Of a stretch of DNA of 59,525 nucleotides, positions 8,862-53,682 are shown one piece after another (positions within the stretch are counted from its first letter, which is position 1; each line of letters begins with the position of its first letter). The DNA is taken from IMG/VR virus record IMGVR_UViG_3300022214_000006, positions 1 through 59,525 of that record; one strand, given 5' to 3'. The notes under the pieces are model-generated. The model was given only the letters and a program-made list of their open reading frames with translations. It made no database searches and was not told the DNA's origin. Position numbers and translations under genes: made by a program. This DNA is from a virus (taxonomy: Duplodnaviria; Caudoviricetes).

Positions 8862-8890
8862 ATTATACTAAAAAGGCTTACCCGATGCAA
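8862..8890 (-). promoter_or_regulatory. sigma70-type promoter for the ncRNA/tRNA unit
   Basis: TTGCAT-N17-TATAAT. Confidence 0.7.
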
Positions 8891-16258: not shown

Positions 16259-17824
16259 TTATTTCACCAGCCCCGCCTTAAACCATTCAGGCAAAATGTG
16301 GTTTACTTTTTGGAAGAAGGCGTGAAAGCGGGTGTCAAGTAGATACACAACGGATGAGTCATCCTTGCTTCTTGTACTTCTACCACACATCTGCATCACA
16401 TCAATTAAAGTCCGCCAATTATACCACACCCAATGCCCTTGTGAAAGTTTTGCATGTACATAAGGATCGGTGATTGCAGGATATGGTGGGCGTATAATAA
16501 TCTGCCATTTTGCCCTTGTTCCATGAGCGTCTATACCTTCACGAATTGATGGGCTAATAAATACTAATGGTTCTTTAGAATCATAAAACATTTGTAATTT
16601 TTTGGCAAATGTCTCAGGTGTATGTGTCACTATCCTACCAGTTTCTGAAAGTGATGCAGTTAATTCTTGCGCCATTTTATAAGAAGCTGCATGTATCAAT
16701 CCTTTCTGTAAATTATGGTGTTGCATAATCCTACGGATTTCATGTATAGCAACTGATGAATTAGTTGCCCACATCTTATGTGAAAGGTCTAGGTTAGAAT
16801 GACGTGGCATAACAACAGGGCGATTCTCTTTCGGAAAATCGCTATCAATATTAATAAACACTGCATCATTAGGAGAAATTCCAAGTCCTGAAAAGAAGGC
16901 ATTTTTATCCAATATCGTACCTGACATGAACACAATAACATCCCCAAAGGCTCCGAAAAATTGGTGGAACGCATTACCCACATAACTTGGAATCATAGTG
17001 ATAACTGTTTTATGTTTTCCTTGGATTACTTCGACAATTGCTAATTTTCCATAAGCGTCAATATTCTTTTCTAATTTCTCAAGTTTTTCCAAGTATGCTT
17101 CACGCGAGTCATTTGGAGTATGGAGGAACTGGTCATCTTGTTTGAGCCATTGTACCCATTGTAATGGTGTTTTTAAAGGTGATATGTCAGACAATGGAAC
17201 GTCTCGGTACACATTAAAAGTTACACTGAGTTGTGACCTCAAGTACGCTTCGATGCCGTGGCTTTCATCAATGATAATTATCCGCCGTTTTTCAAGACGG
17301 TCATACATCCCATTGAAAAAGAATGATGCTGTGTTGCAGCACACTATATCTTCTTTTAATGCTTCCGCTAGAGCAATATCATACGGGCAATCACCCGAAT
17401 TAACTTTGCAATCTTGGATACGCTTTTGCCGTGTCTCAGATTTAACTCCAACACATTCACCTGTAGCGCAGGAATCTTCAAGTTTCGGTTTCGGTACATT
17501 ATCACCAGCTCGAATCAACTTGATAATTTTTTGATTTGATGTTGGGTTTCCGTAAGTGCATTGGTATGCACCTTTACCCTTCAACACTTTCAGTTTATTC
17601 TTGAAATCTGCTCGGTATTGCTCTTGCAATGATTGTGTTGGGCAGGCGATGTATCCTTTACCATAATAATTACACAAAGAAACTGCCACCGCACTTTTAC
17701 CAAGCCCCACGGCGGCCTGTAGTCCGATGAACTTTGCTCCACCATCTATAGCAGCTTTAATTTTCTCAAGCGCGATTCGTTGATTTGGTCTGATTGTTTC
17801 TAGTGGAAAATGGTTTATTGGCAT
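16259..17824 (-). CDS. DinG/XPD-like SF2 helicase
   Basis: Q motif 'RPNQ', 'GLGKS', 'IIDESH', 'MSGT', 'EGID', 'Q.CGR..RS.DD', 'LLD.RF'. Confidence 0.88.
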   Translation of the reverse strand: MPINHFPLETIRPNQRIALEKIKAAIDGGAKFIGLQAAVGLGKSAVAVSLCNYYGKGYIACPTQSLQEQYRADFKNKLKVLKGKGAYQCTYGNPTSNQKIIKLIRAGDNVPKPKLEDSCATGECVGVKSETRQKRIQDCKVNSGDCPYDIALAEALKEDIVCCNTASFFFNGMYDRLEKRRIIIIDESHGIEAYLRSQLSVTFNVYRDVPLSDISPLKTPLQWVQWLKQDDQFLHTPNDSREAYLEKLEKLEKNIDAYGKLAIVEVIQGKHKTVITMIPSYVGNAFHQFFGAFGDVIVFMSGTILDKNAFFSGLGISPNDAVFINIDSDFPKENRPVVMPRHSNLDLSHKMWATNSSVAIHEIRRIMQHHNLQKGLIHAASYKMAQELTASLSETGRIVTHTPETFAKKLQMFYDSKEPLVFISPSIREGIDAHGTRAKWQIIIRPPYPAITDPYVHAKLSQGHWVWYNWRTLIDVMQMCGRSTRSKDDSSVVYLLDTRFHAFFQKVNHILPEWFKAGLVK

Positions 17825-19077
17825 TGTTTTAGTTGATCGTTTATAAAATCTATTACTTTGTTAGCATTGAAAATATTTGTGCATTCACGTTTAAAACTAA
17901 GAATTCCAGAATTTATACTTGGTATCTGTGCCTTCAATAATGACTCTATCCGTGCGGCTTCTGTCCCAGAACATTCAAATTTTGCTAAAACTTCATAATG
18001 TACGCGATGTTTTCTAAATTCTATTTCGTGTTGTGCGATTCTATTATCAAATACGTTACTAATACCATAACCACAATAAATATCACCTATATTTAGCACG
18101 TATATTATCGCAGGCAACGCTGTTTTAAAACCAGTCACGCTACAGGCAGGGCATCCGTGTTTAGCATGTAATATGTTTGTTGGTTCTGCTAACCATTCAT
18201 GACCACAATTTGTAGACAAACATTTAAATGTTATTTTTGTATCTACATTAACAAATTCACCAATTCGTTGTATCGAACTTCCTTCGAGTCTTACATCGAC
18301 TATTTCATTGGATAGTCTCTCAACTTTAGAACATCTAGCACAACCCTTACCTGCGAATAAATTTGATGCTAATATCGACCATTCTCTACCACACCCGTTG
18401 TTTTCGCATCTCACCTTAAACGGAATAGAATGCTTAATATAAGGAGATACCCTAATTATATTTCTTCCTATAAGTCGTGTATCTATAATCTCGTCAGTTA
18501 GTGGAGCACGTTTTGAGCATTTCGGGCATCCTTTACCTGATTGAATGGCTCCATATCTGGTGTACCATTCATATCCGCAAGTGGGGATACTACATTTAAA
18601 TTTTAATGGTTTATCAGACTGGGTATAGCTACCAACCCTGATAATATTTCGTCCTACTAAACGGGCATCTATTACAGTATTAGTTAGCGGTTCACTCCCC
18701 GAACATTTAGGGCATCCACTACCTCTACTAACTACGTTCAATACTTTAGTTTCCCAAACGTTAAGGCAACTATTAATCAAGCATTTAAATCGTAACTTAG
18801 ACTCACCACTAATTACTTCCCCAATACGCTCTATATTTCTACCCTTTAACCGAGAATCAACAATCTCATTAGTCAACCTCTCCTTCTTAGCACATCTAGG
18901 GCAACCATTTCCGCAACACGTAACATTGGGTGGGAACGTAGACCATTCACAATTACAACCATCTTTCAAGCATTTAAATTTTAACGAAGTTTTGCTGGAA
19001 ACATAATCCCCTATACGCTGTATATTGCGCCCAACCAATTTAAAATCTATGTCTGAATTTGTTAATCTCCTACTCAT
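17815..19077 (-). CDS. Free-standing endonuclease-like protein: 5 Zn-ribbon repeats + GIY-YIG-like C-terminal domain
   Basis: Five ~60-aa repeats ending 'GCP.C'; C-terminal 'IYV......YGISN...R..QH'; start at 19077 follows AGGAG. Confidence 0.7.
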   Translation of the reverse strand: MSRRLTNSDIDFKLVGRNIQRIGDYVSSKTSLKFKCLKDGCNCEWSTFPPNVTCCGNGCPRCAKKERLTNEIVDSRLKGRNIERIGEVISGESKLRFKCLINSCLNVWETKVLNVVSRGSGCPKCSGSEPLTNTVIDARLVGRNIIRVGSYTQSDKPLKFKCSIPTCGYEWYTRYGAIQSGKGCPKCSKRAPLTDEIIDTRLIGRNIIRVSPYIKHSIPFKVRCENNGCGREWSILASNLFAGKGCARCSKVERLSNEIVDVRLEGSSIQRIGEFVNVDTKITFKCLSTNCGHEWLAEPTNILHAKHGCPACSVTGFKTALPAIIYVLNIGDIYCGYGISNVFDNRIAQHEIEFRKHRVHYEVLAKFECSGTEAARIESLLKAQIPSINSGILSFKRECTNIFNANKVIDFINDQLKQCQ

Positions 19078-19088
19078 ACACACTCTCC

Positions 19089-19238
19089 TAAAACAAAGAG
19101 GCTTCACCTGAACTCTCAACCTTGCGGAAGTTGGAATAATGGGCTGACACCCACCAGAGTTCATGTAAAGCCTCGCCAGTTTAATTCGGATTCCAAGCCG
19201 ATAGGAGAGTTTATATACTAATTTATATTACTTGTCAA
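19089..19238 (-). promoter_or_regulatory. Promoter + structured leader of the endonuclease gene
   Basis: TTGACA-N17-TATAAA (19210-19238); long stem 19098-19116/19156-19174; TTGGAAT/ATTCCAA cross-pairing. Confidence 0.6.
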
Positions 19239-23025: not shown

Positions 23026-23054
23026 ATTATAGATGTTTTAGATGGGGTTGTCAA
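23026..23054 (-). promoter_or_regulatory. Consensus sigma70 promoter
   Basis: TTGACA-N17-TATAAT. Confidence 0.8.
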
Positions 23055-23913
23055 GGGTGTTGGAGATTAAATTTAAGACTGCCGGGAGGTTGTGTAAATG
23101 GGTGGCTTCTTTTTTGAAACCTTCAATTCCGGTATTAACTATTGGGAATGTCTTTTGGATTAAGCGTTCTATCTGTTGTGCTTGTATGCCGGAGCATTCG
23201 TAGGTGGTGATTAGTTCTGCGTAGGCGTTGTGCTTTTTGAAGGAAGTTTTGTGCCTATCGGCACGTGTTTTAAAATTATTAGTTATTCCAAAACCACAAT
23301 GGGTATCGTTGATTGCATACACATATACTACTGAAGGCTTTTTTGAATTAAATCCAGTTTTAGCACAGTTAGGACAGCCAACACCATCTAAAACGCTCCC
23401 CACTACCGCACTCCATTTATTACCACAACATAAACAGCTATATTTCATTTTATGGCTGTTACGACCTGTGTATTCTGACTCTCGCTTTATTCCTCGTCCA
23501 AGCAATTTAGCATCTATACTGCTATTTGTCAGAGGATTACTCCCAAAACATTTAGGGCATCCGGTACCATTATTAATTACATTGCTATATTTAGCTCTCC
23601 ATGTATGCCCACAGATGCCTGAAAACTCCATTCCACTATCCGCCCCAACATACTCGGATAATCTAGATATGCCCCTCTTAACTAATTCAGCATCCACTTC
23701 TTCTATTGGTCTAGGAATTCTTCCACCGCATTTAGGGCAACCTCTTCCTTTTGACACAACATTATTTGGTAGTGCTGACCAAACCCACCCACAGGACAAT
23801 TTTGTGCATTTGAAACGTATCTTAGTGTGGCACATAACATAGGTATCTAAGAGAATTATATTTCTCCCAGACAATCTAGATTGTATAATCTCGTCAGTTA
23901 GTTTCTTAGCCAT
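23038..23913 (-). CDS. Free-standing endonuclease-like protein: 3 Zn-ribbon repeats + GIY-YIG-like C-terminal domain
   Basis: Paralogue of 17815-19077; repeats ending 'GCP.C'; 'VYVY......GFGITN...R...H'. Confidence 0.7.
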   Translation of the reverse strand: MAKKLTDEIIQSRLSGRNIILLDTYVMCHTKIRFKCTKLSCGWVWSALPNNVVSKGRGCPKCGGRIPRPIEEVDAELVKRGISRLSEYVGADSGMEFSGICGHTWRAKYSNVINNGTGCPKCFGSNPLTNSSIDAKLLGRGIKRESEYTGRNSHKMKYSCLCCGNKWSAVVGSVLDGVGCPNCAKTGFNSKKPSVVYVYAINDTHCGFGITNNFKTRADRHKTSFKKHNAYAELITTYECSGIQAQQIERLIQKTFPIVNTGIEGFKKEATHLHNLPAVLNLISNTLDNPI

Positions 23914-24051
23914 AACAAAACCCTCAAAAATGTACACGAGCCGCCAAGCTGTAGTCCTGTAATAAAACAAGACCCGTGTACATATCTGAGGGTTTTACAG
24001 TTGCTACATCTTGGCTAGGGTTCTTATAGCAAAATAATAGTAACTTGTCAA
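23914..24051 (-). promoter_or_regulatory. Promoter + structured leader of the endonuclease gene
   Basis: TTGACA-N17-TATAAG (24023-24051); stem 23917-23940/23973-23996; cross-pairing 24004-24015 with 23943-23954. Confidence 0.6.
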
Positions 24052-25625
24052 GCCTTATGGTCGATAACCATCTTGTACAAATCCAACAGTGCGTCCTGAT
24101 CGGTTTTTTTAGCAATAAGGCTATCAAACCTCTTCCACTCGATAGGCGTAGCGCCGATATAGTAGATATTCATCGGATGTTTCTGCAATGCTGATGCGAT
24201 ACGCTCATTACTTTGAAGAAAGTGGAGTCCACGTTGGCTAGGAGCTGCCCAAACTATTTTATCAGCAGCAGCCATCTCAAGACCATGGGCGCATACTTGA
24301 GGATGTGCGAGTAACACGCGGGGTTCTTCGCTGTTCTGGAAGTCGGTAAATATTCTATCTCGTTCTTTTTTACCTACTGATCCGTACACCATCTCACAGG
24401 TGAACTCTTTGCTTATTTCCCTATAGTAAAGTCTCAATGCTCCTGTAAAACTCACAAAGACAATGGTTTTTCTAGGTGTACTGCGGATACACCTCATGAT
24501 CGCATCAATACGAGATTGGCAGTCCAATTCCTGATAGGTGTCTAGTCCAGTCTTATAAGCCCCTAACGCAATCTGCAACAGTTTACCAACTTTATCGCTG
24601 GCGTTAATTGCTAAAAGTTTTTCGCCACTTTCATGTTCTAAAAGCATGTCTTTTTTCATACTATCATACATCTTCTTCTGTTCTTTACTGAGATCACATT
24701 CGATTCGTGTATGGGTGAGTTCTGGTAAGTTTAGGACATCTTTCTTCCTTATGCAAATGGCGGGTTGTAGAGCGCGGTGTACATGGATGTTCGCGTCTTT
24801 TTTAGGCTTCCAAATAGGTGGGTTTACGCAAATTTGATTCATCACTAACGAACGCCAAGCGCCAAAATATTTAGGAACGTTGTCAGGTGAAACCAATTTC
24901 ACCATGCTCCATACAGAAAGCGGATTTTCTCCAGTTGGCGTACCTGTCAACTCTATAAAACGCTGACTAGGTTTCAGCGCATCACGTATGGACTTCCACA
25001 TTAAACTTTGAGAATTTCCGAGGTTATCTGCTTCGTCCCAAACGATAATATCAATGTCTTTACTATTCATCAAATACTTTTTGATTGCATCATTCTTAAC
25101 TCCGTCATGGTTGATGATGGTTATGGTATAATTGGATTTCAGTTCTTCTTCAAATCGTGGATTGACAGAGTGGATCACTTCACTGCTGTAATTTGAAAAC
25201 GATTCAAGAGCCAACTGATGCCAGACAGTGCTTGTGGTAGATAGTGTTGTAAAAATAACCATGCGCCTAACATTTCCAAATTTCCGCAGGAAATCAAACG
25301 TGAGCATAGTTGAAAAACTTTTTCCAGTCCTCGGCTCGGAAAGATCGAAACAGCGTTTGTTATCAGCTTTAAACCGAGCTGTGATTAGTTGGTGCGGCAT
25401 CGGAGGATAGATACCTGCCAGCAATGGTGGTTCATACAACTCAAACGGATGCGGACAATCCAAAATCCCCCGTAGTTTTTGGTAAGCCTCCAAATCCCAT
25501 TTAACCGCAACCTTCGGCTGTCCAGATTCGTCTTGGATTATTTTATGTTTAAGATCGGTCAGGAAGGGAAGAAGGACGTGGCTGACGATTATGGACTTGC
25601 TGGGACGATGCACGGTTACGGTCAT
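24048..25625 (-). CDS. SNF2-family helicase
   Basis: 'EPRTGKS', 'WDEAD', 'LTGTP', 'HGLEM..AD', 'QSNERI'. Confidence 0.88.
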   Translation of the reverse strand: MTVTVHRPSKSIIVSHVLLPFLTDLKHKIIQDESGQPKVAVKWDLEAYQKLRGILDCPHPFELYEPPLLAGIYPPMPHQLITARFKADNKRCFDLSEPRTGKSFSTMLTFDFLRKFGNVRRMVIFTTLSTTSTVWHQLALESFSNYSSEVIHSVNPRFEEELKSNYTITIINHDGVKNDAIKKYLMNSKDIDIIVWDEADNLGNSQSLMWKSIRDALKPSQRFIELTGTPTGENPLSVWSMVKLVSPDNVPKYFGAWRSLVMNQICVNPPIWKPKKDANIHVHRALQPAICIRKKDVLNLPELTHTRIECDLSKEQKKMYDSMKKDMLLEHESGEKLLAINASDKVGKLLQIALGAYKTGLDTYQELDCQSRIDAIMRCIRSTPRKTIVFVSFTGALRLYYREISKEFTCEMVYGSVGKKERDRIFTDFQNSEEPRVLLAHPQVCAHGLEMAAADKIVWAAPSQRGLHFLQSNERIASALQKHPMNIYYIGATPIEWKRFDSLIAKKTDQDALLDLYKMVIDHKA

Positions 25626-33455: not shown

Positions 33456-36035
33456 TTAATTCGTCAAATAATTAATCACTAACCCGATTTCTTCCTCAGT
33501 CATCTTCTGTTCCCACCGATCTTTAGGTAGGAATGGTAAACCTTTATTTGCTTCATCCAACTCAATCTGACCATAGGGTGCTTGTTCAGCATTCCACGGT
33601 TGATATGTTCGGCCAATAGCAATTGAGCAGTTCACCAAACACTTCTGAAAGAAATCATGGTCAAGCATGATTGTCCGTAGGTCTTTGATAAACTCCTGTG
33701 CCTGACTCTTGTGGCAACTGAAAACCAATTCATCGTGAACAGGGAACATAAAACGTGCATCATAGTTCTTTGTTTTAATAATTTTATTCATGTTCAAAAT
33801 TGTTCTCTTCGCCATCGTTGCGCAATACCCCTGCACTCTGGCATTCACTGACTGATTTCCTGAACGTGTTTGAATCTTTTTAATACAGAGGTTAGCGAAA
33901 TTTACCGCCCCAACCCCATAAGGTCGAAATTTATTACGGAAGGTGTCCGCCCATTCCTTTGTTGACTCATATCTATACCGTCGATGATGATCTGGGAGTT
34001 CAACAAATCCATTTCTTTTAGCTTCATCAATTGTGCCTATACGCCACGCTTCCATACCACTATAAAGAGTTCTAAATCGGTCAACCTTCTCCCAATGTTC
34101 TTCTGATGACCAGCCCATGACTGTTGCTGTAGAACCTAAAGCACCTGAAAATGCATATGAGAAGTTGGCCGATTTTCCAACATCTCTACGGAGAGCTTTT
34201 TTATCTGGGTGAATTTTGAATTCTTCTGGAGTCATTTCAAGGCAATATCCTGCTGTCAGAGAATGCATGTCATCATAGGGGATTGTAGAGAATGCTCGGC
34301 ACATTTCAATATCTCCAGAATATTCAGCCACAATTACCAATTCTATAGAATTCCAATCGCAAGAAATTACCAAATGATCTTCATTATCTGCCAAGAAAAA
34401 TCCGCGAACATACTCAGAAATTTTACCCTTCGGAAGCTGGCTTACATTCGGGTTAGACAGAGCCATTCGTCGCGTGTCAAGCTGGCTAGACAGCGTTGGA
34501 TACATCCGGCTAGTCTCAGGGTCAACGAGGTTCAAATAGTTCGTCAGGAACAGTTTAATGGTCGTGTCAATAGACCCAAGTTTCTTGAAGCATTCAAGAA
34601 CTCCTTTAATTGCATTGAAACGATCTTCTTCAATCTCGTGCTTACTCCGTACCAAACGTTCAAGCATCTTGTCTCGTGCATCACCATCTGATTGTGTCTT
34701 TCCATTCTCCTGAATATATGAAAGGTGGCAGAGGTCATAGAGCATCGTTCGCTGCGGCATGTAGTGGCTCAGGTTGACACCCTTAGACTCTTTCAAACCC
34801 TGTTCCTCAGCCCAAGCCTTAGACACTGGTGAGCGAACCTGATGGCACTGCTCAAATGAATCATCAGAATCAGGGGATGTTGCCCAATTAGTGATTGAAT
34901 CCCGATACTTCTGATAGCCCTTTGAAAACCATGAATCATACTTCAACAGTTTCTCATGTGGCTCATCATTGAATGGTAGCAGAACTTTTACATGGCTCTT
35001 CATCTCAGCCAGAACTTTTGCGTAATCTTCACGCTCAATGTCACGTTGCTTCAAGATTGCCTTCTGGTCAACTCTAATGCCTTCACACCATACCTGAGAG
35101 TACACCTGAGACATTGGAGCCTCTTGCTTCATAAATGTCTTCAGTACCTCGCTATTACCTTGAGTATTGATAAACTCTACGAGGGCATCCATAATCCATA
35201 CACAACACCAAGCATCATCTGCTCCATAACTAGATACTTCATCACCTGTCAGTTGACCCATGTGGGTCTTACCATTTAACACTTGGTCGAATGTGACTTG
35301 TTCATAGTTCAGGAATCGCTTGGAAAGTTTTTTAAGCCCATAACCGAATGCAAAATTCTTTACATAGCCACCATAACTGAACTCACTATCGGACTCTTTA
35401 GCGCAAACCTTCATCACCAGTTCTTGCTGCTCTGGAGTCATCGGCTTGCCCCACTGATACTCCGCGAACAGTTCTGGTGCTCCATGTCTCGTGGGAGAAG
35501 TCTTGCTGCTCATCAACTTCTTCAATCCAATCAAATCAGCTTCACGGAATTCCTGATGGTCGTAGGTGTCATTGTTGAATGCTGTGACAGCCAGTTGCAT
35601 CGTACATAGGACGCGCTTGCCCAAGTCATAGCCAAGTGAAGCCTGCATCATGGTCAATTCAAACGGGGCATTGTGACTGACAGTTGTGCAGGTGGGTGAA
35701 CGAGCATCTAGGATTTGTTTAGCCATAAACCAAGGCAAACGATTTTCCACATCTGCATGTGTTAGATTGACGTAGTAAGCGGTATCATCACCTTTTACGT
35801 AGATTGAGAATCCAGTTACGGTTGTTCGGCGGGTATCAAATACTAAAGACTTGTTGGATGCTCGTTTACCGTCTTCATTGACTGACATGAAACGATTGAG
35901 ACCTTCGTGGCGGTCAGGGTCGCAGGTTTCTATATCGAAACCACAAAAGGTTGCGGAAGCTATCTTGGAAATAATACTGGGCATAATTTCAGCCCAGTTT
36001 CGTAAATCAATTAATTGTGTTCTTGGAAAATCCAC
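33456..36035 (-). CDS. DNA polymerase, family A, with 3'-5' exonuclease
   Basis: Exo 'FDIET', 'HNAPFE', 'YGADDA'; motif A 'DWNSIELV', motif B 'R...KSANF', motif C 'VHDELVF'. Confidence 0.92.
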   Translation of the reverse strand: MDFPRTQLIDLRNWAEIMPSIISKIASATFCGFDIETCDPDRHEGLNRFMSVNEDGKRASNKSLVFDTRRTTVTGFSIYVKGDDTAYYVNLTHADVENRLPWFMAKQILDARSPTCTTVSHNAPFELTMMQASLGYDLGKRVLCTMQLAVTAFNNDTYDHQEFREADLIGLKKLMSSKTSPTRHGAPELFAEYQWGKPMTPEQQELVMKVCAKESDSEFSYGGYVKNFAFGYGLKKLSKRFLNYEQVTFDQVLNGKTHMGQLTGDEVSSYGADDAWCCVWIMDALVEFINTQGNSEVLKTFMKQEAPMSQVYSQVWCEGIRVDQKAILKQRDIEREDYAKVLAEMKSHVKVLLPFNDEPHEKLLKYDSWFSKGYQKYRDSITNWATSPDSDDSFEQCHQVRSPVSKAWAEEQGLKESKGVNLSHYMPQRTMLYDLCHLSYIQENGKTQSDGDARDKMLERLVRSKHEIEEDRFNAIKGVLECFKKLGSIDTTIKLFLTNYLNLVDPETSRMYPTLSSQLDTRRMALSNPNVSQLPKGKISEYVRGFFLADNEDHLVISCDWNSIELVIVAEYSGDIEMCRAFSTIPYDDMHSLTAGYCLEMTPEEFKIHPDKKALRRDVGKSANFSYAFSGALGSTATVMGWSSEEHWEKVDRFRTLYSGMEAWRIGTIDEAKRNGFVELPDHHRRYRYESTKEWADTFRNKFRPYGVGAVNFANLCIKKIQTRSGNQSVNARVQGYCATMAKRTILNMNKIIKTKNYDARFMFPVHDELVFSCHKSQAQEFIKDLRTIMLDHDFFQKCLVNCSIAIGRTYQPWNAEQAPYGQIELDEANKGLPFLPKDRWEQKMTEEEIGLVINYLTN

Positions 36036-38738: not shown

Positions 38739-39527
38739 TCATTTTATGTTTTCAATTCGTTTACGTGCAATATCTACATACTCTGGCGACAATTCAATCC
38801 CAATAAACTTTCTATTGTTTAACAGCGCCATCTTACCAGTTGTACCGCTGCCCATGAACGGGTCTAGCACTATCTCACCTTCGTTAGACCATGATAGGAT
38901 GTGATCTTTAGCTAAGGCTTCGGGAAATCTCGCTGGGTGTACTTTTGCTATTTTACATCCCTCTGTGCTCCCTGTTCTGTAAGTAAAGATATTTCCAGTT
39001 ATTTTATTATCAGAGATTACCTTTTTCGATAACTTTGTAAGAACACCTGTATTGTCTTTGTATTGTGATGGTTGCCCCCAAGTCTCCTGCCCGGCATATT
39101 TACAAGGTACTTTGATGGGGTTAAATGATTTTGGCTTACCATTGCTGAATACAAACATGTACTCCCACTCCTGCTCGTATCTGTTATGTGTTAGCGGAGT
39201 ATAATTTTCTTTTCGATAAATCATAGTGTCATGCAGATTAAATCCGCACTCTTTAAAGAATAGTGCTTGCTTAAACGATGTGCCTGTCTCACTACCTTTA
39301 ACGGTAGCGTCACCTACTACCCACACTACAACTCCACCGTCCTTAGTAACTCTGTACAGTTCTTTAGCCAAGGCTTCAAAATCCCATGTAAACCCATTAT
39401 AAGTACGCAGGTTATCATAAGGTGGGCTGGTTACAGTCAGGTCAATCATTCCGTCTGGGAACTGAGCCAGTGCGGAAACATTATCGCTTGTGATTAGTTT
39501 TGCGTTACCTATGCGTTCGATGTTCAT
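38739..39527 (-). CDS. DNA N4-cytosine/N6-adenine methyltransferase (beta class)
   Basis: 'TSPPY', 'HPARFP..L', 'LDPFMGSGTTG'. Confidence 0.92.
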   Translation of the reverse strand: MNIERIGNAKLITSDNVSALAQFPDGMIDLTVTSPPYDNLRTYNGFTWDFEALAKELYRVTKDGGVVVWVVGDATVKGSETGTSFKQALFFKECGFNLHDTMIYRKENYTPLTHNRYEQEWEYMFVFSNGKPKSFNPIKVPCKYAGQETWGQPSQYKDNTGVLTKLSKKVISDNKITGNIFTYRTGSTEGCKIAKVHPARFPEALAKDHILSWSNEGEIVLDPFMGSGTTGKMALLNNRKFIGIELSPEYVDIARKRIENIK

Positions 39528-47452: not shown

Positions 47453-47896
47453 TTATTGTCGGAAATGGATTTCTAACTGTTTTCGGTGGTGGAGGAACTT
47501 TTTATAGTATTGATCTGCGCTTATCTTGGCTTTACCTGCTTTAAAAGTGCCAATCCCCACATTATAACTACGAATTGCGTTCTCAGAACTATCAAGTCTT
47601 TTGTAATACTGTCGAAGTAACCCTGTACCGGCTATCATGTTTTTGTCTAGGTCTTTGCTACCCCCTCGAACCTGCATAATACCGACGCTCGGTATCCCTT
47701 TTTCTGGGTTGATAGCATTGGTACGGTATGCACTTTCTACCCTAATCACAGCCAGTATATCTAAGTAGGTCGGAAAATCTGGATAAGCTAACTGTTTTGC
47801 AAGTTTTACGATACGCTTAGGAGGTGTAATAAAATTATCGACTGCACCCGCTTCGCAACTAACCAGTAACATCAAAAAACATGCAAATTTAAACAT
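47453..47896 (-). CDS. Lytic transglycosylase (SLT domain) with N-terminal signal peptide
   Basis: 'AVI.VES.Y...A', 'GIMQV', 'A..SYN.G'; promoter TTGACA-N17-TATCAT at 47925-47953. Confidence 0.85.
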   Translation of the reverse strand: MFKFACFLMLLVSCEAGAVDNFITPPKRIVKLAKQLAYPDFPTYLDILAVIRVESAYRTNAINPEKGIPSVGIMQVRGGSKDLDKNMIAGTGLLRQYYKRLDSSENAIRSYNVGIGTFKAGKAKISADQYYKKFLHHRKQLEIHFRQ

Positions 47897-48062
47897 GTTA
47901 GCCCCTTTTAAAATGAGTTAACGAATGATAACCGAACTTGAAGATTTTGTCAAGCCTGTATTTGTTACAGTTAATGTAAAGCATTAACTTCCATCCGTGA
48001 TTTTTTAGGATGCTATATAAAATTGCAATGTATTAAAATCAACAGCTTACGAATTATTTGCC

Positions 48063-48114
48063 GATATAGGCGACATTAGAAAGAAAATATCTTGTCGCCT
48101 ATATCATGTTCGAC
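48063..48114 (+). other. attI-like left boundary of the cassette array
   Basis: GTTCGAC core (48108-48114) is complementary to R'' of the first attC but is not itself part of an attC; preceded by a 13-bp inverted repeat. Confidence 0.45.
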
Positions 48115-48118
48115 ACCT

Positions 48119-48319
48119 TCATGGTTGAGCAAACGGAGTTGGCGGTATCCAGTTACCATCGCACATCTTTCCAGATATTGCGGCTTCCCATGCTCGCTTA
48201 AAGCCAGCCTGAAACACCACGCGCCTATCTCTGTTGTCGATCTGTGGGCGTGCTGCAAAATACTCGTCCTCGGCAACTATGCAGTTGGCCTCCATTAGTG
48301 CATTGTCTCGTTCGTTCAT
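48119..48319 (-). CDS. Cassette 1: hypothetical protein
   Basis: RBS AAAGGA; 'ED.YFAARPQID...R.VF.AGF.RAWE'. Confidence 0.7.
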   Translation of the reverse strand: MNERDNALMEANCIVAEDEYFAARPQIDNRDRRVVFQAGFKRAWEAAISGKMCDGNWIPPTPFAQP

Positions 48320-48348
48320 TTCAATCCTTTCTTCGTAGAACGGGCGGT

Positions 48349-48413
48349 GTCGAACCCGTCAATCAACCCGGACTCCGCAAAAGCGCGGAGCCGGTTATTT
48401 CTGTTCGTTATGC
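48349..48413 (+). repeat. attC site 1
   Basis: GTCGAAC ccgtc AATCAACC ... GGTTATT tctgttc GTTATGC. Confidence 0.88.
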
Positions 48414-49153
48414 CCCTCAATCCGATTCCGCGCAATCTCAAAGTATTTTTGGTCTTGCTCTATCCCGATAAAGTTGCGCCCTGTATTTAGGCAAGCTACG
48501 CCCGTCGTGCCGCTCCCCATCGTGTTGTCCAGCACAGTCTCACCCTCGTTCGTGTAGGTCTTGATGAGGTACTCGCACAGGGCTACAGGCTTCTGGGTGG
48601 GGTGGAGCTTGGCATTTTCTTTGGCGAATTCCACGATCTGCTTAGGATAGTTTGTGAATTCTTGGAAGTGTTCCGCTGAGTGCGATTTTCGCGCAGGTGC
48701 GTTATCCCTACCTAGATTCTTCGGGCGAGTTGTGTCCACCGTCTTGCCGTAGGGTATCAAACCTTGCGGGAAATAAGGCATGTTATTTTTAGACCCATTC
48801 GCTGTCATGCCATCACTGAAAACACAAATGGTTTCGTAGCTCTTTAGCGGCTTGAGTTTCGCGTTCACGAATCCGCTAGTGTTCTTTTTATCCCACACCC
48901 AATCATACTTAAATCCCGCCAAGTTGGATAAACGCATCACACTAGAAAAAGGTTCTTCACCGAACAACACTATCGCCCCGTTCTTCTTTATCAACCGTTT
49001 ATATTGCTCCCACAGTGGCTCAAACGGAATTACCGTATCCCACTTGCACGCGGTCGTGCCGTATGGCAGGTCGCACAAGATCATATCTACCGATCCATCG
49101 GGTATCTGTGCCATCAAATCGAGGCAATCCCCCTGCCACAGCGTAAGGGGCAT
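48395..49153 (-). CDS. Cassette 2: DNA N6-adenine/N4-cytosine methyltransferase (start 49153, or further upstream within attC2)
   Basis: 'DMILCDLPYG', 'HPTQKPVAL', 'VLDNTMGSGTTG'; stop lies inside attC1. Confidence 0.9.
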   Translation of the reverse strand: MPLTLWQGDCLDLMAQIPDGSVDMILCDLPYGTTACKWDTVIPFEPLWEQYKRLIKKNGAIVLFGEEPFSSVMRLSNLAGFKYDWVWDKKNTSGFVNAKLKPLKSYETICVFSDGMTANGSKNNMPYFPQGLIPYGKTVDTTRPKNLGRDNAPARKSHSAEHFQEFTNYPKQIVEFAKENAKLHPTQKPVALCEYLIKTYTNEGETVLDNTMGSGTTGVACLNTGRNFIGIEQDQKYFEIARNRIEGHNEQK

Positions 49154-49230
49154 AACTTTACGGTCAAGCGGACTTGCCGCCTGCGTCGCTTCGCTCCTAG
49201 TCGTCAATCCGCTTACCTCCATCGTTAGGC
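49150..49230 (+). repeat. attC site 2
   Basis: GCATAAC tttac GGTCAAGC ... GCTTACC tccatc GTTAGGC. Confidence 0.88.
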
Positions 49231-49475
49231 CTACCATACATATAGTTTATGTGGCAGACTCCCTCATTAAATGTCATTGGTCGAGATGTGCTTTTTGTAC
49301 CTTCTCGCAATTTCATCCACCCACCCCATGATTCAACATAAAATTGCCAATACCCATCCATCCATTTATACGGGTTCCTTGGCAGGCTTGTTATTATTTT
49401 TTCTTTATCGCCTAACCCTGCGTTGAACCCAGACCCGCCGATACGTGCTTCGTTTTTAGTTTTTTGGTTTTTCAT
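49197..49475 (-). CDS. Cassette 3: hypothetical protein
   Basis: RBS GGAG and ATG inside the attC3 loop; stop inside attC2. Confidence 0.6.
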   Translation of the reverse strand: MKNQKTKNEARIGGSGFNAGLGDKEKIITSLPRNPYKWMDGYWQFYVESWGGWMKLREGTKSTSRPMTFNEGVCHINYMYGRPNDGGKRIDD

Positions 49476-49534
49476 AGTTCAAATCTCCGTTTCAAGTTTT
49501 CTAATCGGCGGGCTGGTTAACTGGTATGTTGGGC
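49410..49534 (+). repeat. attC site 3 (long, 125 bp)
   Basis: GCCTAAC cctgc GTTGAACC ... GGTTAAC tggtat GTTGGGC. Confidence 0.85.
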
Positions 49535-49535
49535 A

Positions 49536-49745
49536 TCATCCACCCATACCTCCATCACCCATGCACTCACCATTGCATTCGCGGTCAAAGCAAACAGAGC
49601 AGGGCTCGCTATCGACTTCTTCTTCGCTGCTATCGTTTACAACCTCTTGGCAGTTTATTCCTCCGCAGCTTCCACATTGGGTATGGGTAAGCGCGACCAT
49701 CGGGCCTCGCCAAGTTACATGTCCACCACATAAAGAGCAAATCAT
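49536..49745 (-). CDS. Cassette 4: small Zn-ribbon protein
   Basis: 'MIC..CGG.V.W.GP...LTHTQC..CG..NCQ'; RBS AAAGGA. Confidence 0.7.
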   Translation of the reverse strand: MICSLCGGHVTWRGPMVALTHTQCGSCGGINCQEVVNDSSEEEVDSEPCSVCFDRECNGECMGDGGMGG

Positions 49746-49774
49746 AGTACGTTCCTTTCTTCGTTAATCGTTAT

Positions 49775-49839
49775 GCCCAACCCTGCGCTCAAGCGGGATC
49801 GCACAAAATCGTGCGACCCCTTAGCTTGATATGTTCGGC
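49775..49839 (+). repeat. attC site 4
   Basis: GCCCAAC cctgc GCTCAAGC ... CCTTAGC ttgatat GTTCGGC. Confidence 0.88.
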
Positions 49840-50063
49840 GTCTTGAGCATAGCCGCATCAATCGCCTCTTCTGCGGTTGAGAATCGCTTGCCGTCCAAAT
49901 ACCAGCAGCAATTTCCACCTTGATGTGGCATTCCATGTTCAAGAACGTGGCGGTATCGTTCAGAGTCAAGTTCAAGTGCCGCAGCTCGATCCGCATACCC
50001 ATTGAGTGCGCTCCCGAAGTCTCCGCATTCGTGGTCTTGTTTTAATTGCTCGCTAAGTTTCAT
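49821..50063 (-). CDS. Cassette 5: hypothetical protein
   Basis: RBS AGGAG; 'DSERYR...AIDAAM' phage-type motif; stop inside attC4. Confidence 0.7.
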   Translation of the reverse strand: MKLSEQLKQDHECGDFGSALNGYADRAAALELDSERYRHVLEHGMPHQGGNCCWYLDGKRFSTAEEAIDAAMLKTPNISS

Positions 50064-50085
50064 AGTGCTCTCCTGTCAATTAGCC

Positions 50086-50145
50086 GCCGAACCCTTCATT
50101 CAACCCGGACGCGCTGATGCGCGCCGGTTAATTCAAATGTTCGAC
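50086..50145 (+). repeat. attC site 5
   Basis: GCCGAAC ccttc ATTCAACC ... GGTTAAT tcaaat GTTCGAC (classical 59-be-like). Confidence 0.92.
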
Positions 50146-50149
50146 CCCA

Positions 50150-50308
50150 TCAATTTCCAATTGCGCATATTGAAAAATATATCCCTGCAACAAATTCAGC
50201 TACGCCTGTTACGAATATTGCTAAATTACGTTTTCTTATTCCTTGCCCGAAAGAATCACCTGAAAGGATAAGTCCAGCAATACCGATTGAAAAGTTAAAT
50301 ATCATCAT
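50150..50308 (-). CDS. Cassette 6: small two-TM membrane protein
   Basis: RBS GGAG; two hydrophobic segments. Confidence 0.6.
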   Translation of the reverse strand: MMIFNFSIGIAGLILSGDSFGQGIRKRNLAIFVTGVAEFVAGIYFSICAIGN

Positions 50309-50332
50309 CTTGAATCTCCGATTAAAATAGTG

Positions 50333-50393
50333 GTCGAACCCTTCATTCAACACGGACGCGCTGAAGCGCGCCGGTTAATTCAAAATGTTGGGC
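50333..50393 (+). repeat. attC site 6
   Basis: GTCGAAC ccttc ATTCAACA ... GGTTAAT tcaaaat GTTGGGC. Confidence 0.92.
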
Positions 50394-50608
50394 GGCAGCA
50401 ATTGCCCGCATTCTTTACAACGCTTTGGCATCGGTGTGCTGTCGAGGAAAGCAACCCACCCGTGATTGAGGTTTTTCGTTAGGTTTGCGCGCTGCATCCA
50501 CACCCATCCGATGAATTCCATGCTTGATTCTTCCAGCGGCCCGTTATATTTTGTGTGCCTTGCCAATCGCACAGGCCACCAACAAAATTTAGTTTTAAAG
50601 TTGCTCAT
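50375..50608 (-). CDS. Cassette 7: hypothetical protein with C-terminal CxxC
   Basis: RBS AAGGAG; stop inside attC6. Confidence 0.7.
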   Translation of the reverse strand: MSNFKTKFCWWPVRLARHTKYNGPLEESSMEFIGWVWMQRANLTKNLNHGWVAFLDSTPMPKRCKECGQLLPPNILN

Positions 50609-50634
50609 GTGTGGTCTCCTTGTTCAAACGTTAT

Positions 50635-50726
50635 GCCCAACCCGGCGTTGCAGCGAAGCGCGGCCATAAGTCCGGCGGGTGTTATTCTGTTATTTTTTAG
50701 AGCGCTCGCTGAACTCGAGGTTATGC
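50635..50726 (+). repeat. attC site 7
   Basis: GCCCAAC ccggc GTTGCAGC ... GCTGAAC tcgag GTTATGC. Confidence 0.82.
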
Positions 50727-50757
50727 GTCAAGCAGATCATCAATAAATGCTCTCGCG

Positions 50758-51054
50758 TCAGCTCCGGTAAATCCCACGAAATACTCCATCCCGTACTGCA
50801 CCACCATGCACCACCGACGGTGCTCGTAACGTGATGCCGCTCTCCATGATTCCAAGCCAAAACCTCTGTATGTCGTGCTGTAGGCGCTCATATCTCTCTC
50901 CGTGATGCGTATTAAAGGCTTGCCGCGCCCACTTGCCTAAGCACGCATAGGTATTCCCAGTTTCTTTAATCTCTGCTTCAAAGAGTGGTTTAAGATTAAA
51001 TGGCAATGCAATTAATATATCTTTTGCTAGTTTTATTTGCTTTTCGGTAAGCAT
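50758..51054 (-). CDS. Cassette 8 (attC truncated): hypothetical protein
   Basis: RBS GGAGGG before MLTEKQ. Confidence 0.65.
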   Translation of the reverse strand: MLTEKQIKLAKDILIALPFNLKPLFEAEIKETGNTYACLGKWARQAFNTHHGERYERLQHDIQRFWLGIMESGITLRAPSVVHGGAVRDGVFRGIYRS

Positions 51055-51086
51055 GGTCCCTCCAAAATAAAGACGTATAACCCTAC

Positions 51087-51126
51087 TTAAGAACACCCAT
51101 TATACCAGAACTGTAAAAATCTGCAA
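51087..51126 (-). promoter_or_regulatory. Repeated phage promoter, copy 4, reading into the cassette array
   Basis: TTGCAG-N16-TATAATGGGTGTTCTTAA. Confidence 0.75.
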
Positions 51127-51134
51127 GCACTTTC

Positions 51135-53078
51135 TCAACCTTGTGCGATTATGTGCTGCTGCAACTGTTCAATATATTCTTCATCGGTATCTGGGAGGGC
51201 TTCAGAGCCTGTCAGACTGGCTTTGAAGGTCTCCAGTAGATATGATAGTTCATTGAGTCGTGCGGCTTCCGCAGGGTCTCCAATTTCAGGAATTTCGTCG
51301 AGAATACGGGTGATCTCATAGTCTGCACGTGTTTTGGCTGTGTATCTGCCGCTGTTATCTATCCACGGGCGGTCATCTGGCGACTCCTTATAATAGTCTA
51401 GCAGTCCTTGGTAGAACGGCAGGGTCAGCAGGTCTAATGAACCTTGGGCGGCGGCTAACTTCTCTTCGGCGCGGCGGGATTTTTCGGAGGCTATTGCCGA
51501 GATTATAAAATTGCTGATATTTTTTATATCTGTCGTAACATTCTCGAATCTGCTTACAGACCATTTCAACACTTTGTCTTCAGGTTGTTTATACACGGCT
51601 GCAAAGAACGCTTTGATAGTCATCTGCTTATTTTGGTAAATAATTTGATCTGTCGAATAAACGTTCAGCATTTCCATCATGTCAGATACTGTTACGTAGC
51701 TGTTGACATACTCACCGTCTTTAATGTCTTCGCAGGCTTCAAGGAATAGCTGCACGTTTTCGGCACGTCTTGACTCATCTTTAAGTGTATCCTTATCTAT
51801 GTTCTTGCAGTAGTACTCCCACAAGTCGAATCTTTTGTATATTGTCGGCAACACGCGCTCGACTTCACTGTTTAGGTAGTCTTCGGTGAACTGGTCATAG
51901 TCTTCTTCCTTTATATCTGATGGTATCAGTCCTTGCATTGTCACATAATCAATCTTTTTCTGCGCAGATGTTGCGTGTTCGCTTGTTCGACACGAATTAA
52001 TCAGCAGTTCATAATAGTCTTGGTCTACACCGTCTTCCCCAGTCAAGGCTTTATATGTAGCTCGTGCTGCGGCTGTCTCCATATTAAACATTTGTGTTAA
52101 CGTCTTACCATCGTAGTCCCTTGGCTGCGGGCGAGGCGGGAAATACTTGGCGGCAGTATCCTTGAACTTTTGTTTCTTTTCTGCAATGGTTAATGATTTC
52201 GTAGGTTGTGTTGTGGTGGGGGCTAATTGTTGGATGGTTACGCCGGTGTATAATTGCTGCATTGTTGGGAGTTTCGACACCTTCTTAGCTAATACCGCAA
52301 GTGATGCATCACTACCGTCACCCATTAGAAAGTCAATCAGGTGATCTTTATCTGCACAGTTGCACAGTGTCAGGAATTGCTTGAAGTTCTTTTTCTTATA
52401 TATCCTGCGGAGGTCTAGTTTATCATAATCTATGGTTTCATAGGTTAGGGCAGGTTCTTGTGGTGCCGCAACTTTTTCAGGTTCTAATATCTCACAACAT
52501 TGCTGCCGATACAACGCTAAACTACGCTCGACACCCGCCTGCCCATCAGGATGCTTTATGGTTAAACCTTTCGTAAAACGATTCATGACTTCATCTGAAT
52601 GTGAATACTTAGTGTGTGTATGTTTAGCCATATCTGCACTTATCAACTGTTTCAATACAGGTATTAGATGTTTTGCATTATAGTAAGGCTTCGCCGCGAA
52701 TAAACTATCTTTTTGAAACATCATCGGGTGGTGCGCAGGGATTATACCTTGCCTTGCAATTTCAGTATCTATAATACTTACAGGAAAACCAGAGAACTCA
52801 TGAACCATTTGCACTGAGAATAAAATATCTTTAATGATGGTAAGTTTTATAATGTTGTAGGCGTTAATATCTGCAATCCTAGTTGGTGGAGTTCCGCGAT
52901 ACATTAAGTAGCTACGAAAGCCGTCTTTATCCCACGCAAACATAGCTGATTCTGTATAATAACTCCTCAACTTCAAAAAGTTAATATCATCTGAAAATTC
53001 AGAATTTAGTACGTTTTTTTCTTCTAATTTATAGCGCATTGATGCACTAATGTTGTTAAGTTTACAGAAATATTTCAT
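51135..53078 (-). CDS. Large hypothetical protein (~647 aa)
   Basis: Long ORF; likely start MKYF at 53078 after GGAG; no family recognised. Confidence 0.75.
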   Translation of the reverse strand: MKYFCKLNNISASMRYKLEEKNVLNSEFSDDINFLKLRSYYTESAMFAWDKDGFRSYLMYRGTPPTRIADINAYNIIKLTIIKDILFSVQMVHEFSGFPVSIIDTEIARQGIIPAHHPMMFQKDSLFAAKPYYNAKHLIPVLKQLISADMAKHTHTKYSHSDEVMNRFTKGLTIKHPDGQAGVERSLALYRQQCCEILEPEKVAAPQEPALTYETIDYDKLDLRRIYKKKNFKQFLTLCNCADKDHLIDFLMGDGSDASLAVLAKKVSKLPTMQQLYTGVTIQQLAPTTTQPTKSLTIAEKKQKFKDTAAKYFPPRPQPRDYDGKTLTQMFNMETAAARATYKALTGEDGVDQDYYELLINSCRTSEHATSAQKKIDYVTMQGLIPSDIKEEDYDQFTEDYLNSEVERVLPTIYKRFDLWEYYCKNIDKDTLKDESRRAENVQLFLEACEDIKDGEYVNSYVTVSDMMEMLNVYSTDQIIYQNKQMTIKAFFAAVYKQPEDKVLKWSVSRFENVTTDIKNISNFIISAIASEKSRRAEEKLAAAQGSLDLLTLPFYQGLLDYYKESPDDRPWIDNSGRYTAKTRADYEITRILDEIPEIGDPAEAARLNELSYLLETFKASLTGSEALPDTDEEYIEQLQQHIIAQG

Positions 53079-53102
53079 AACTTTTTTACTCCAAAATTGA
53101 AA

Positions 53103-53151
53103 AATCGTGTCCAAGGTACAAGGAATCGTGTCCAAGGTACAAGGAATCGTG
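53103..53151. repeat. 21-bp tandem repeat (2.3 copies)
   Basis: AATCGTGTCCAAGGTACAAGG x2 + AATCGTG. Confidence 0.9.
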
Positions 53152-53682
53152 GCCGTTGTCAAGACATTTTTAGCGGTTAGTAAAGGAATTATGTCCGTCG
53201 AGATGGTAGTAATTCCTAATGTTTCGGACAAAAGTGTCGGTTGAGAGGCGATGAATTTCCATTAGACGGACATAATTTTGAGTGTTTTCATTATACTTTT
53301 GGACTTTTTCGTGTTTTCGGCACTATCCGAAAATGCTGGAAAATCGAAAAAATTTTAGAGGAATGATGCTGGTATTGGGATTGCAGGTTAGTGGTCGCAT
53401 ACTACGATGAAAATAAGTATAGAGCAAGTTTTTAAAATAATTTTCTCAGATTTGCAGAAAAATATTTTCTGGAACGAGGTTGTACTTATTTATGCATATT
53501 ATGTATAATATATATAATAAGTACATAGGTAACACATTGATTTCATTGCAGTTTTATCGTAAGATGCTGCTGAAAATACATAATATGTGGCTACCTGAAT
53601 CGCTGCAAGGTATGTAAATAAAGGCTTGCAGAGGTGCTTGCAGCCACAAAACTGTGTTATGATGTGTTTTTAGGAGGCACAC

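Follow-up and report, generated by a model that had tools for sequence, protein, structure and literature searches.

Seven attC sites in a tailed-phage contig

The IMG/VR virus record IMGVR_UViG_3300022214_000006 is a linear contig of 59,525 nt, rated as about 72% complete by CheckV, whose PHROG matches are those of a tailed phage. We analysed the whole of this stretch (hereafter, the window) and focused on an array of repeats at 48349-50726 that are attC sites, the recombination sites of integron cassettes, together with the small genes between them, one of which encodes an orphan DNA methyltransferase. All of these genes lie on the minus (-) strand, antisense to the attC sites' top strand. 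The canonical cassette layout, a promoterless open reading frame (ORF) on the top strand upstream of its own attC, was found in none of the six inter-attC intervals. Read in the direction of transcription, the unit here runs from attC bottom strand to Shine-Dalgarno sequence (SD) to ORF, whereas the bacterial unit runs from ORF to attC top strand.

We scanned the whole contig, with filters off and at E<=10, using a covariance model (R1) built from 39 diverse attC sites of bacterial genomes, with no phage sequence and with the structure given by hand. R1, whose E-values are rough, returned 23 matches; the top seven were all on the plus (+) strand and all within 48349-50726, the limits that an earlier note on this DNA had given for the array, and the remaining 16 had E-values of at least 1.1. 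Site a (48349-48413; 62.7 bits, E 1e-14) has the boxes R'' GTCGAAC and R' GTTATGC and an L'-R' spacer of 7 nt, and its stem is identical to that of the commonest bacterial attC of the family. Site b (49150-49230; 30.4 bits, E 8.8e-6) has a 6-nt spacer and is 87% identical to metagenome locus L130. Site c (49412-49532; 31.0 bits) also has a 6-nt spacer and is a long form of about 125 nt, scoring 44 bits when taken as 49410-49534. Site d (49775-49839; 36.2 bits; 7-nt spacer) is 84% identical to viral locus L297, and site e (50086-50145; 68.0 bits, E 3.5e-16; 6-nt spacer) is 87% identical to sites in L001 and L002. Site f (50333-50393; 60.5 bits; 7-nt spacer) is 84% identical to L301 4174-4253. 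The last site, g (50635-50726; 14.1 bits, E 0.28), has a long loop, a 5-nt spacer and the R' box GTTATGC; the stretch 50615-50730 is 94% identical over 116 nt to L301 3645-3760, where the box layout is alike.

Each of the seven sites carries R'' (RYYYAAC) and R' (GTTRRRY) boxes with the invariant AAC/GTT, and R''-L'' spacers of 5 nt as against L'-R' spacers of 5-7 nt. Across 97 phage-borne sites the AAC/GTT pairs show no or almost no variation, and the outer four R''/R' pairs are unpaired in about one third. In these sites 90.1% of the pair cells were paired, compared with 71.0% after shuffling (a value that 0 of 500 shuffles reached) and 23-43% in slid controls. Compensatory changes were found at 16 of 21 pairs, with 384 both-sided cells against 138 +/- 11 in shuffles, in an alignment that was fitted to the model and so flatters the structure. 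Both in the family alignment and in the window sites, three unpaired (extrahelical) columns lie on the 5' arm of the + strand only.

We also scanned public collections with a sequence pattern drawn from window sites a and e. A strict version of the pattern gave no matches in bacterial genome contigs; a looser one, used thereafter, matched at least 120 stretches in bacterial genomes and at least 120 in metagenomes. The bacterial matches listed came mostly from metagenome-assembled genomes (MAGs) of Betaproteobacteria (Gallionellaceae, Sulfuritalea, Nitrosomonadales, Rhodocyclales) or from Methylobacter, often with several per contig. This attC family is common in chromosomal integrons, most of them betaproteobacterial. 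In all five bacterial genomes with the family in which we looked for it, intI scored above the NCBIfam cut-off (472-497 bits) and the sites lay beside it. Together with the R1 matches, this shows that the window repeats are members of a real integron attC family rather than look-alikes. A scan of 47800-51300 against Rfam at E<=10 gave no matches, a result that leaves unsaid whether Rfam has an attC family.

Two further features of the sites were observed. The 12-mer GTTATGCCCAAC, an R'-like box abutting an R'' box, occurs before sites d and g (49771-49782 and 50631-50642), and GTTATGCCCC also makes up R' in site a and, in reversed form, R'' in site b; this recurrence may be a trace of fused or empty cassettes. 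In addition, the long attC form of about 121-126 nt recurs (window 49410-49534; L301 3020-3142; L265 4272-4397; L297 1421-1544; and others), and in the window and L301 its loop carries the SD and start codon of its own cassette gene.

Orientation of the array

The orientation of the sites depends on asymmetric details, since the R''/R' consensus is palindromic. According to the text of Nivina 2016 (PMC5027507), the bottom strand is the one with 5'-AAC in R', with the extrahelical bases on the opposite arm near L''. By that definition + is the top strand in the window, because the unpaired bases lie on the + strand 5' arm beside the AAC-bearing R''. The same source describes bottom strands as folding more stably, and here the - strand fold was lower in energy in six of seven regions (the region of site g ended at 50700). 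Two other tests agreed. Among the bacterial and metagenome loci listed, the longest ORF lay on the strand of the pattern in 74 of 80 inter-site intervals, and in each of the five bacterial genomes the R1-forward sites pointed away from a divergently transcribed intI, which is the textbook layout. R1 itself gave no - strand match at any of the seven site positions. Three independent tests therefore point to + as the canonical top strand, and the attC orientation assumed in the earlier note stands.

Minus-strand cassette genes

Since calling the longest ORF mis-assigned small genes in the window, it was replaced by a codon-usage caller combined with an SD test; the gene calls given here come from these heuristics of our own and not from a standard gene finder. 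The best ORF was on the - strand in six of six inter-attC intervals, and the methylase domain also lies on -, in keeping with the earlier claim that all cassette ORFs are antisense to the attC top strand. An SD (GGAG, AGGAG or AAAGGA) stands 5-10 nt before the ATG in six of the seven small ORFs read (o66, o92, o69, o80, o52 and o77), and likewise before the flanking gene o98.

The largest cassette gene (48395-49153, -) encodes an orphan N6/N4 DNA methyltransferase, with matches to Pfam PF01555 (N6_N4_Mtase; 2.7e-30) and phrog_67 (3.8e-75); on these profile matches the identity of the - strand methylase is certain. Its longest ORF extends to 49237. Homology to phrog_67 begins at residue 29, which makes M29 the likely start, at an ATG (49153) that lies in the R'' box of site b and has no SD, and the last three codons and the stop lie in site a. 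To the left of site a, o66 (48119-48319, -; 66 aa) has its own TGA stop just past an R'-like half-site, GTTCGAC (48108-48114), and AAAGGA before its ATG. It has no Pfam or PHROG match and is 73% identical at the amino acid level to an attC-flanked ORF in L301.

Between sites b and c, o92 (49197-49475, -) begins in the loop of its own site c, where, as the earlier note had described, both GGAG and ATG (49475) are found, and it ends on a TAG in the loop of site b; it scores 19.7 in codon usage against 0.5 for the other strand and has no family match. The next gene, o69 (49536-49745, -; codon score 8.4 against -9.1), encodes a Cys-rich small protein and has its own TGA 1 nt past the R' box of c. 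It is followed by o80 (49821-50063, -; 14.4 against 0.9), with AGGAGA before the ATG and no stop of its own, which ends ...TPNISS on a TAA of site d. The small hydrophobic o52 (50150-50308, -) has its own TGA, with GGAG 7 nt before the ATG at 50308; its longest ORF runs from a GTG to 50353. Finally, o77 (50375-50608, -) encodes a small CxxC protein that has no stop of its own and ends ...PPNILN on a TAA of site f. Its codon-usage score is weak, yet it has 41 homologues with a conserved Cys-containing core.

Stops and neighbour-dependent C-termini

Four of the six inter-attC ORFs (methylase, o92, o80 and o77) lack a stop of their own, read AAC through R' and end in the attC of the neighbour. 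The methylase, o80 and o77 stop on the TAA given by the L' TTA of sites a (48395-48397), d and f, respectively; in o92 the frame passes the R' box of site b on AAC and ends at the TAG 31 nt in. The remaining two, o69 and o52, have TGA stops of their own 1-4 nt past R'. The three stop-less genes of the earlier note are thus as it described them, although its count has to be raised to four by adding o92.

The note was also right that L'-R' spacers of 7 nt occur in sites a, d and f and shorter ones elsewhere (6 nt in b, c and e; 5 nt in g). However, its statement that the stop-less genes coincide exactly with the 7-nt sites failed: o92 crosses the 6-nt site b, so that three of four stop-less genes adjoin a 7-nt spacer, which among six ORFs is not significant (Fisher p = 0.2). 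In none of the seven sites does the AAC frame stay open beyond 34 nt, regardless of how long the spacer is, and site e, with its 6-nt spacer, would close it even earlier, at a TGA. The 7-nt spacer decides only which stop is met, and the rule is one of arithmetic. The expectation that all three frames are closed in every attC was rejected as well, as one frame is open in a, b and d.

Because the cassette boundary, between the G and the TT of R', lies at the 3' end of the gene, a stop-less gene crosses it and stops in the next attC, and the C-terminal tail then depends on which cassette is the neighbour. The family of o77 bears this out, as the earlier note had anticipated for protein termini. 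We aligned 33 of the 41 homologues, excluding P0034-P0041, which were short or of low coverage; in 15 of the 33, 1-31 unrelated residues come after a core ending in ...LP[P/A/S]N. Several of these tails are simply the translated bottom strand of an attC, for example ...NAEITGSALLRSPG. The homologue in L306, 71% identical to o77 at the amino acid level, ends ...TPNV, and there a different attC follows. Over all viral loci, the stop lies in R' or in the neighbour's attC for 83 of 136 unique reversed ORFs.

Polarity in other viral and bacterial loci

The pattern from the window also matched 66 IMG/VR contig stretches, in which R1 found 245 sites. We compared these with the bacterial loci, that is, the matches listed out of at least 120 found; the bacterial interval counts drew on the top 150 of 184 matches and, in a second set, the top 150 of 186. 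Whether a locus counts as phage or cell follows the label of its source collection, and the metagenome loci (L123-L242), for which phage or cell origin was undecided, were left out of the orientation comparison.

Of 173 viral intervals examined with the codon caller, 152 held a gene opposite to the attC top strand, 5 held one on the same strand and 16 were unclear; among unique intervals the numbers were 136, 4 and 15. The bacterial intervals, delimited by R1 sites and called in the same way, were mainly canonical, with 128 of 197 on the same strand, 29 opposite and 40 unclear. Phage contigs thus showed the orientation bias among attC-flanked ORFs for which the earlier note had proposed a survey. 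Counted by locus, 48 of 52 viral loci were mostly reversed, as against 5 of 55 bacterial ones. The SD test pointed the same way: 154 of 212 viral sites had an SD with a start and at least 35 codons within 80 nt past the attC on the bottom strand, and 6 of 212 had one on the top strand, compared with 14 and 23 of 123 bacterial sites. By-eye tallies placed methylase-like matches on the strand opposite the attC in 16 of 17 viral loci, with the odd one out 7 kb from its array, and on the attC strand in four of five bacterial loci.

The viral arrays are embedded co-directionally in blocks of phage genes, with 208 flanking long ORFs opposite to the attC top strand and 65 on the same strand. All ten flank proteins taken from other viral loci matched PHROGs, among them a helicase, a DnaC-like loader, polymerases, a primase, a RecE-like exonuclease, a head-tail adaptor and methylases. 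The GC content of the viral loci ranges from 0.44 to 0.63, which indicates several phage types. On these counts, the reversed layout is the rule for this attC family in phage contigs.

Two loci may be noted. L008, a Propionivibrio MAG contig of 29.7 kb, is the sole bacterial locus that is almost fully reversed (8 of 9 intervals), with a methylase-like match on the reversed strand; it may be phage or prophage DNA binned with the MAG. At L001 329-812 (= L002 3399-3882), two attC sites of the family flank a gene for a 118-aa membrane protein that is canonical (+) and antisense to the surrounding phage genes.

Cargo and proposed exchange of cassettes

We compared with Pfam the 133 proteins from reversed viral cassettes that reach 45 aa, leaving out shorter ORFs. 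Most had no Pfam match; the others fell into 22 families in total, including eight matches to N6_N4_Mtase, two to Dam, one to a C5 methylase, two to Mom, two to Lar restriction alleviation and two to PAPS_reduct, as well as single matches to QueC, dATP/dGTP diphosphohydrolase, NinX, N4 gp49 and GIY-YIG. Phage cassette proteins matched 12 places in 120 bacterial loci, 7 of which were also reversed. Judged by these matches, the cargo is phage-type, with a clear DNA-modification and anti-restriction part, and largely distinct from the bacterial cargo sampled.

In the window, seven attC sites, all +, lie within 2.4 kb, and no integrase was found in the contig. With at least two sites less than 4 kb apart and no integrase nearby, the array is a cluster of attC sites lacking integron-integrases (CALIN). 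The arrangement of a complete integron, with intI, attI and the cassette promoter (Pc) at the top-strand 5' end, was not found; a hairpin element (z, described below) lies at that edge.

Several parts of the array recur in other viral loci beside other neighbours, namely o66, o77, site g with its SD, site d and element z, in L301, L306 and L297. L001 and L002, which are unrelated phage contigs, have only attC sites in common with the window (87-88% identity). Among homology blocks of 150-2500 bp between different viral loci, with duplicates kept, 55 of 160 ends lay within 40 nt of an attC, and 30 of these 55 fell in a 13-nt window at R', compared with about 5 expected if the ends were even. 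The o77 homology block of the window begins at 50387, which is the G of the R' box of site f. Such ends at R', together with the outer R''/R' pairs broken in about one third of sites, point to site-specific exchange between the G and the TT; broken outer pairs would follow if each exchange replaced the distal part of R'. Since the window and five other viral records hold no integrase, exchange would need host IntI, and we infer that cassettes pass between phages by host IntI acting in trans.

Interpretation and alternatives

The reading that we favour is that of a genuine attC CALIN of reverse polarity, with gene ends that depend on the neighbour, whose cassettes would be exchanged by host IntI and which would serve the phage as a reservoir of accessory and anti-restriction genes, with expression coming from phage promoters by read-through. 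We give this explanation as a whole a probability of about 0.8. To call the design phage-adapted, as the earlier note did, is plausible. If the reading is true, phages exploit integron recombination sites for their own accessory genes, the small variable C-terminal tails of cassette proteins are explained, annotators of such regions gain a rule for gene calling, and the arrays offer a direct test of the control of attC recombination by strand and orientation.

A number of points weigh against it. The case is built from sequence comparison, and exchange and expression are what we infer from that. No match to PF00589 (tyrosine recombinase) was found in the contig; because the contig is only about 72% complete, an integrase may be encoded elsewhere in the phage genome; TIGR02249 had no match in the five other viral records, two of which are at least 99% complete. 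Site g is weak by R1 alone. The viral contigs are related, some of them near-duplicates, and the Fisher p of 1.4e-51 for the difference in polarity ignores this kinship; the polarity calls themselves rest on heuristic gene calls, and MAG contigs may include phage DNA, as in L008. The viral and bacterial sets were both drawn with one pattern derived from the window, so that 'general' here means general for this attC family. Finally, the CALIN of Tetrasphaera phage TJE1 (L312) is canonical: among its sites (244-293, 1016-1075 and 1462-1519), an R1 + site with E 1.4e-4 comes directly after the + methylase orf2, and two weak R1 + matches follow orf1 and orf3. Reversal is therefore not universal among phages.

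Three possible reasons for the polarity remain, namely operon read-through with an exposed bottom strand, insulation of the cassette pools, or a founder effect in one exchanging pool. A fourth candidate, that the top strand but not the bottom strand acts as an intrinsic terminator, found no support in a simple scan: only site a was flagged on +, and six terminator-like sites were found against 6.9 expected. In a stronger version of the favoured reading, phages whose hosts bear integrons would keep a mirror-image cassette pool of their own, using attC and IntI of the host in trans, and reversal would be adaptive in three ways. Cassettes would be read through within phage operons. The recombinogenic bottom strand would be the non-template strand and, where genes run with replication, the lagging-strand template. 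The pools would also be insulated, in that phage anti-defence cassettes that entered a bacterial array would be silent there, facing Pc, and a phage array would hold incoming bacterial defence cassettes in antisense. This would make the phage array the counterpart to the chromosomal integron, which bioRxiv 10.1101/2024.07.02.601686 presents, in its text, as a store of anti-phage defence genes. This adaptive version is tentative, and we lean somewhat against it.

The alternative that survives best is that the hairpins are RNA or DNA punctuation between small early genes, acting as transcript stabilisers, processing sites or translational couplers, and that the modules are shuffled by homologous recombination with no role for an integrase. 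The missing integrase in the window and the five other records would fit this, as would the more stable hairpin of the bottom strand being the one present in mRNA (the lower-energy fold in six of seven regions) and the closeness of gene starts to the sites, which lie within 30 nt of an attC in 58 of 136 ORFs and inside one in 50 of 136. The unit of site g and its SD is, moreover, kept in L301 before a different ORF. Against it, the phage copies retain all the features that mark the bacterial family as integrase sites, among them an AAC/GTT that does not vary, compensatory stems and, on one arm, three unpaired bases. Nor are homology ends spread over the repeat of about 60 nt; they gather in the R' window, and the outer R''/R' pairs are broken in about one third of sites, which exchange between G and TT would lead one to expect. 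We consider this alternative unlikely.

Much less probable still is that a fragment of a bacterial array was caught once, backwards, by illegitimate recombination, leaving - ORFs that are chance frames or decaying passengers. Such a route has precedents in what has been proposed, as the text of Cury 2016 (PMC4889954) holds that CALINs are thought to derive from array fragments and that of Qi 2023 (PMC9892861) proposes illegitimate recombination as the way into phages. However, the - strand methylase is intact and phage-type, an SD stands at six of seven small - ORFs, o77 has 41 homologues, and codon scores favour - in every interval. The same polarity recurs in 48 of 52 viral loci with different backbones, and in 120 bacterial loci there are only 12 places that phage cassette proteins match. 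The least credible alternative, that - is really the top strand and the cassettes ordinary, could appeal to the palindromic consensus and to site c, whose extra base on the + strand is a G, and it runs against the arm of the unpaired bases, the direction of bacterial ORFs (74 of 80; 128 against 29), the direction of intI (5 of 5) and the lack of any - strand R1 match at the seven sites.

Comparison with known systems

Integrons are viewed as bacterial devices, and their function depends on cassettes facing one way. The window resembles sedentary chromosomal integrons, which for this family are mostly betaproteobacterial, in its attC family down to identical stems, in box layout, in the unpaired bases and in the crossover point at R'. 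It differs in that bacterial cassettes, placed downstream of intI, attI and Pc, carry the ORF ahead of the attC on the top strand, whereas in this array all ORFs are bottom-strand, neither intI nor a recognisable attI is present, and the surroundings are those of a phage operon.

Reverse-oriented cassettes with promoters of their own, such as toxin-antitoxin cassettes, exist in chromosomal integrons. These share with the window an ORF antisense to the attC top strand, and accounted for 29 of 157 (about 18%) decisive bacterial intervals in our set. In contrast to such scattered exceptions, which need their own promoter, the phage arrays are wholly reversed and co-directional with their flanks, and have SDs but no obvious promoter per cassette. 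T4-type phages carry mobile early-gene modules flanked by promoter or stem-loop repeats and exchanged by homologous recombination. These too are small accessory early genes, each preceded by a hairpin-containing repeat and shuffled between related phages; their repeats, however, are phage promoters and terminators, whereas the window sites are, at the level of sequence, members of a family of bacterial integrase sites.

The closest published parallel is the set of attC clusters without integrase that Qi 2023 (PMC9892861) reports from virulent and uncharacterised phages, which include DNA methyltransferase cassettes and of which five of six attC sites tested were recombined by IntI1. The likeness to the window lies in integrase-free attC clusters and methyltransferase cassettes; the difference is that TJE1 is canonical and the window reversed. 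According to the paper's text, the structure of TJE1 and PH101 is the one typical of bacteria, with which our R1 check of TJE1 agrees, and the legend of its Figure 1 includes a toxin-antitoxin cassette with its own promoter. The 17 phage CALINs of its Supplementary Tables S1 and S2 may be relevant to polarity. A term search of the main text of PMC9892861, figures and supplements aside, met no mention of reversed polarity, and a full-text literature search, likewise not covering figures and supplements, found no description of whole reversed phage arrays or of attC-encoded protein tails. Phage CALINs, methylase cassettes and the recombination of phage attC sites by IntI1 are thus published, and reversed polarity is undescribed in the literature found.

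Phage context of the array

The window encodes a tape measure protein (77-4816), a primase/helicase (8868-11819), a DNA helicase (24048-25625) and a PolA-type polymerase (33456-36035), all identified by PHROG matches, which also include a tail-fibre-like protein. All genes between about 8.9 and 53.2 kb are on the - strand. The first large gene of this block is a 698-aa ORF (51135-53231), and the attC array lies 0.4-3 kb downstream of it, near the start of the leftward replication gene block. Between the two, o98 (50758-51054, -) is the first gene to the right of the last attC and stands outside the array, with GGAGG before its ATG at 51054; its 112-aa form had no family match. On the other side, the array adjoins a gene for an SLT-domain lysozyme (47453-47896).

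Searches of GenBank phages and IMG/VR, with flanking proteins included, found no close relatives of this phage. When the 5-kb region was compared with INPHARED it matched through the methylase only, and neither site e nor the proteins of o92, o80, o77 and o66 had a match there.

Some minor features of the contig may be recorded. A second N6/N4-type DNA methylase gene (38739-39527, -; phrog_67 at 3e-58) lies outside the array without flanking attC sites. Two HNH endonuclease genes (17815-19164 and 23038-23970, -; phrog_681/559) lie inside the replication module, and the array of L297 is also bordered by an HNH-like gene. A strong sigma-70-like promoter match (TTGACA, 17 nt, TATCAT; 11/12) is found at 47953-47925 on the - strand, shortly past the downstream end of the array and ahead of the SLT lysozyme gene. 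The border element z (47969-48114; strand unassigned) forms the top-strand 5' edge of the array; it contains a 13-bp perfect inverted repeat (48063-75/48093-105) and ends in ATCAT followed by the half-site GTTCGAC. Its counterpart in L297 (3541-3397; 84% identity) borders the array there on the same side and beside different genes, with the arms of the inverted repeat conserved and the loop variable. Element z occupies the place that attI holds in an integron.

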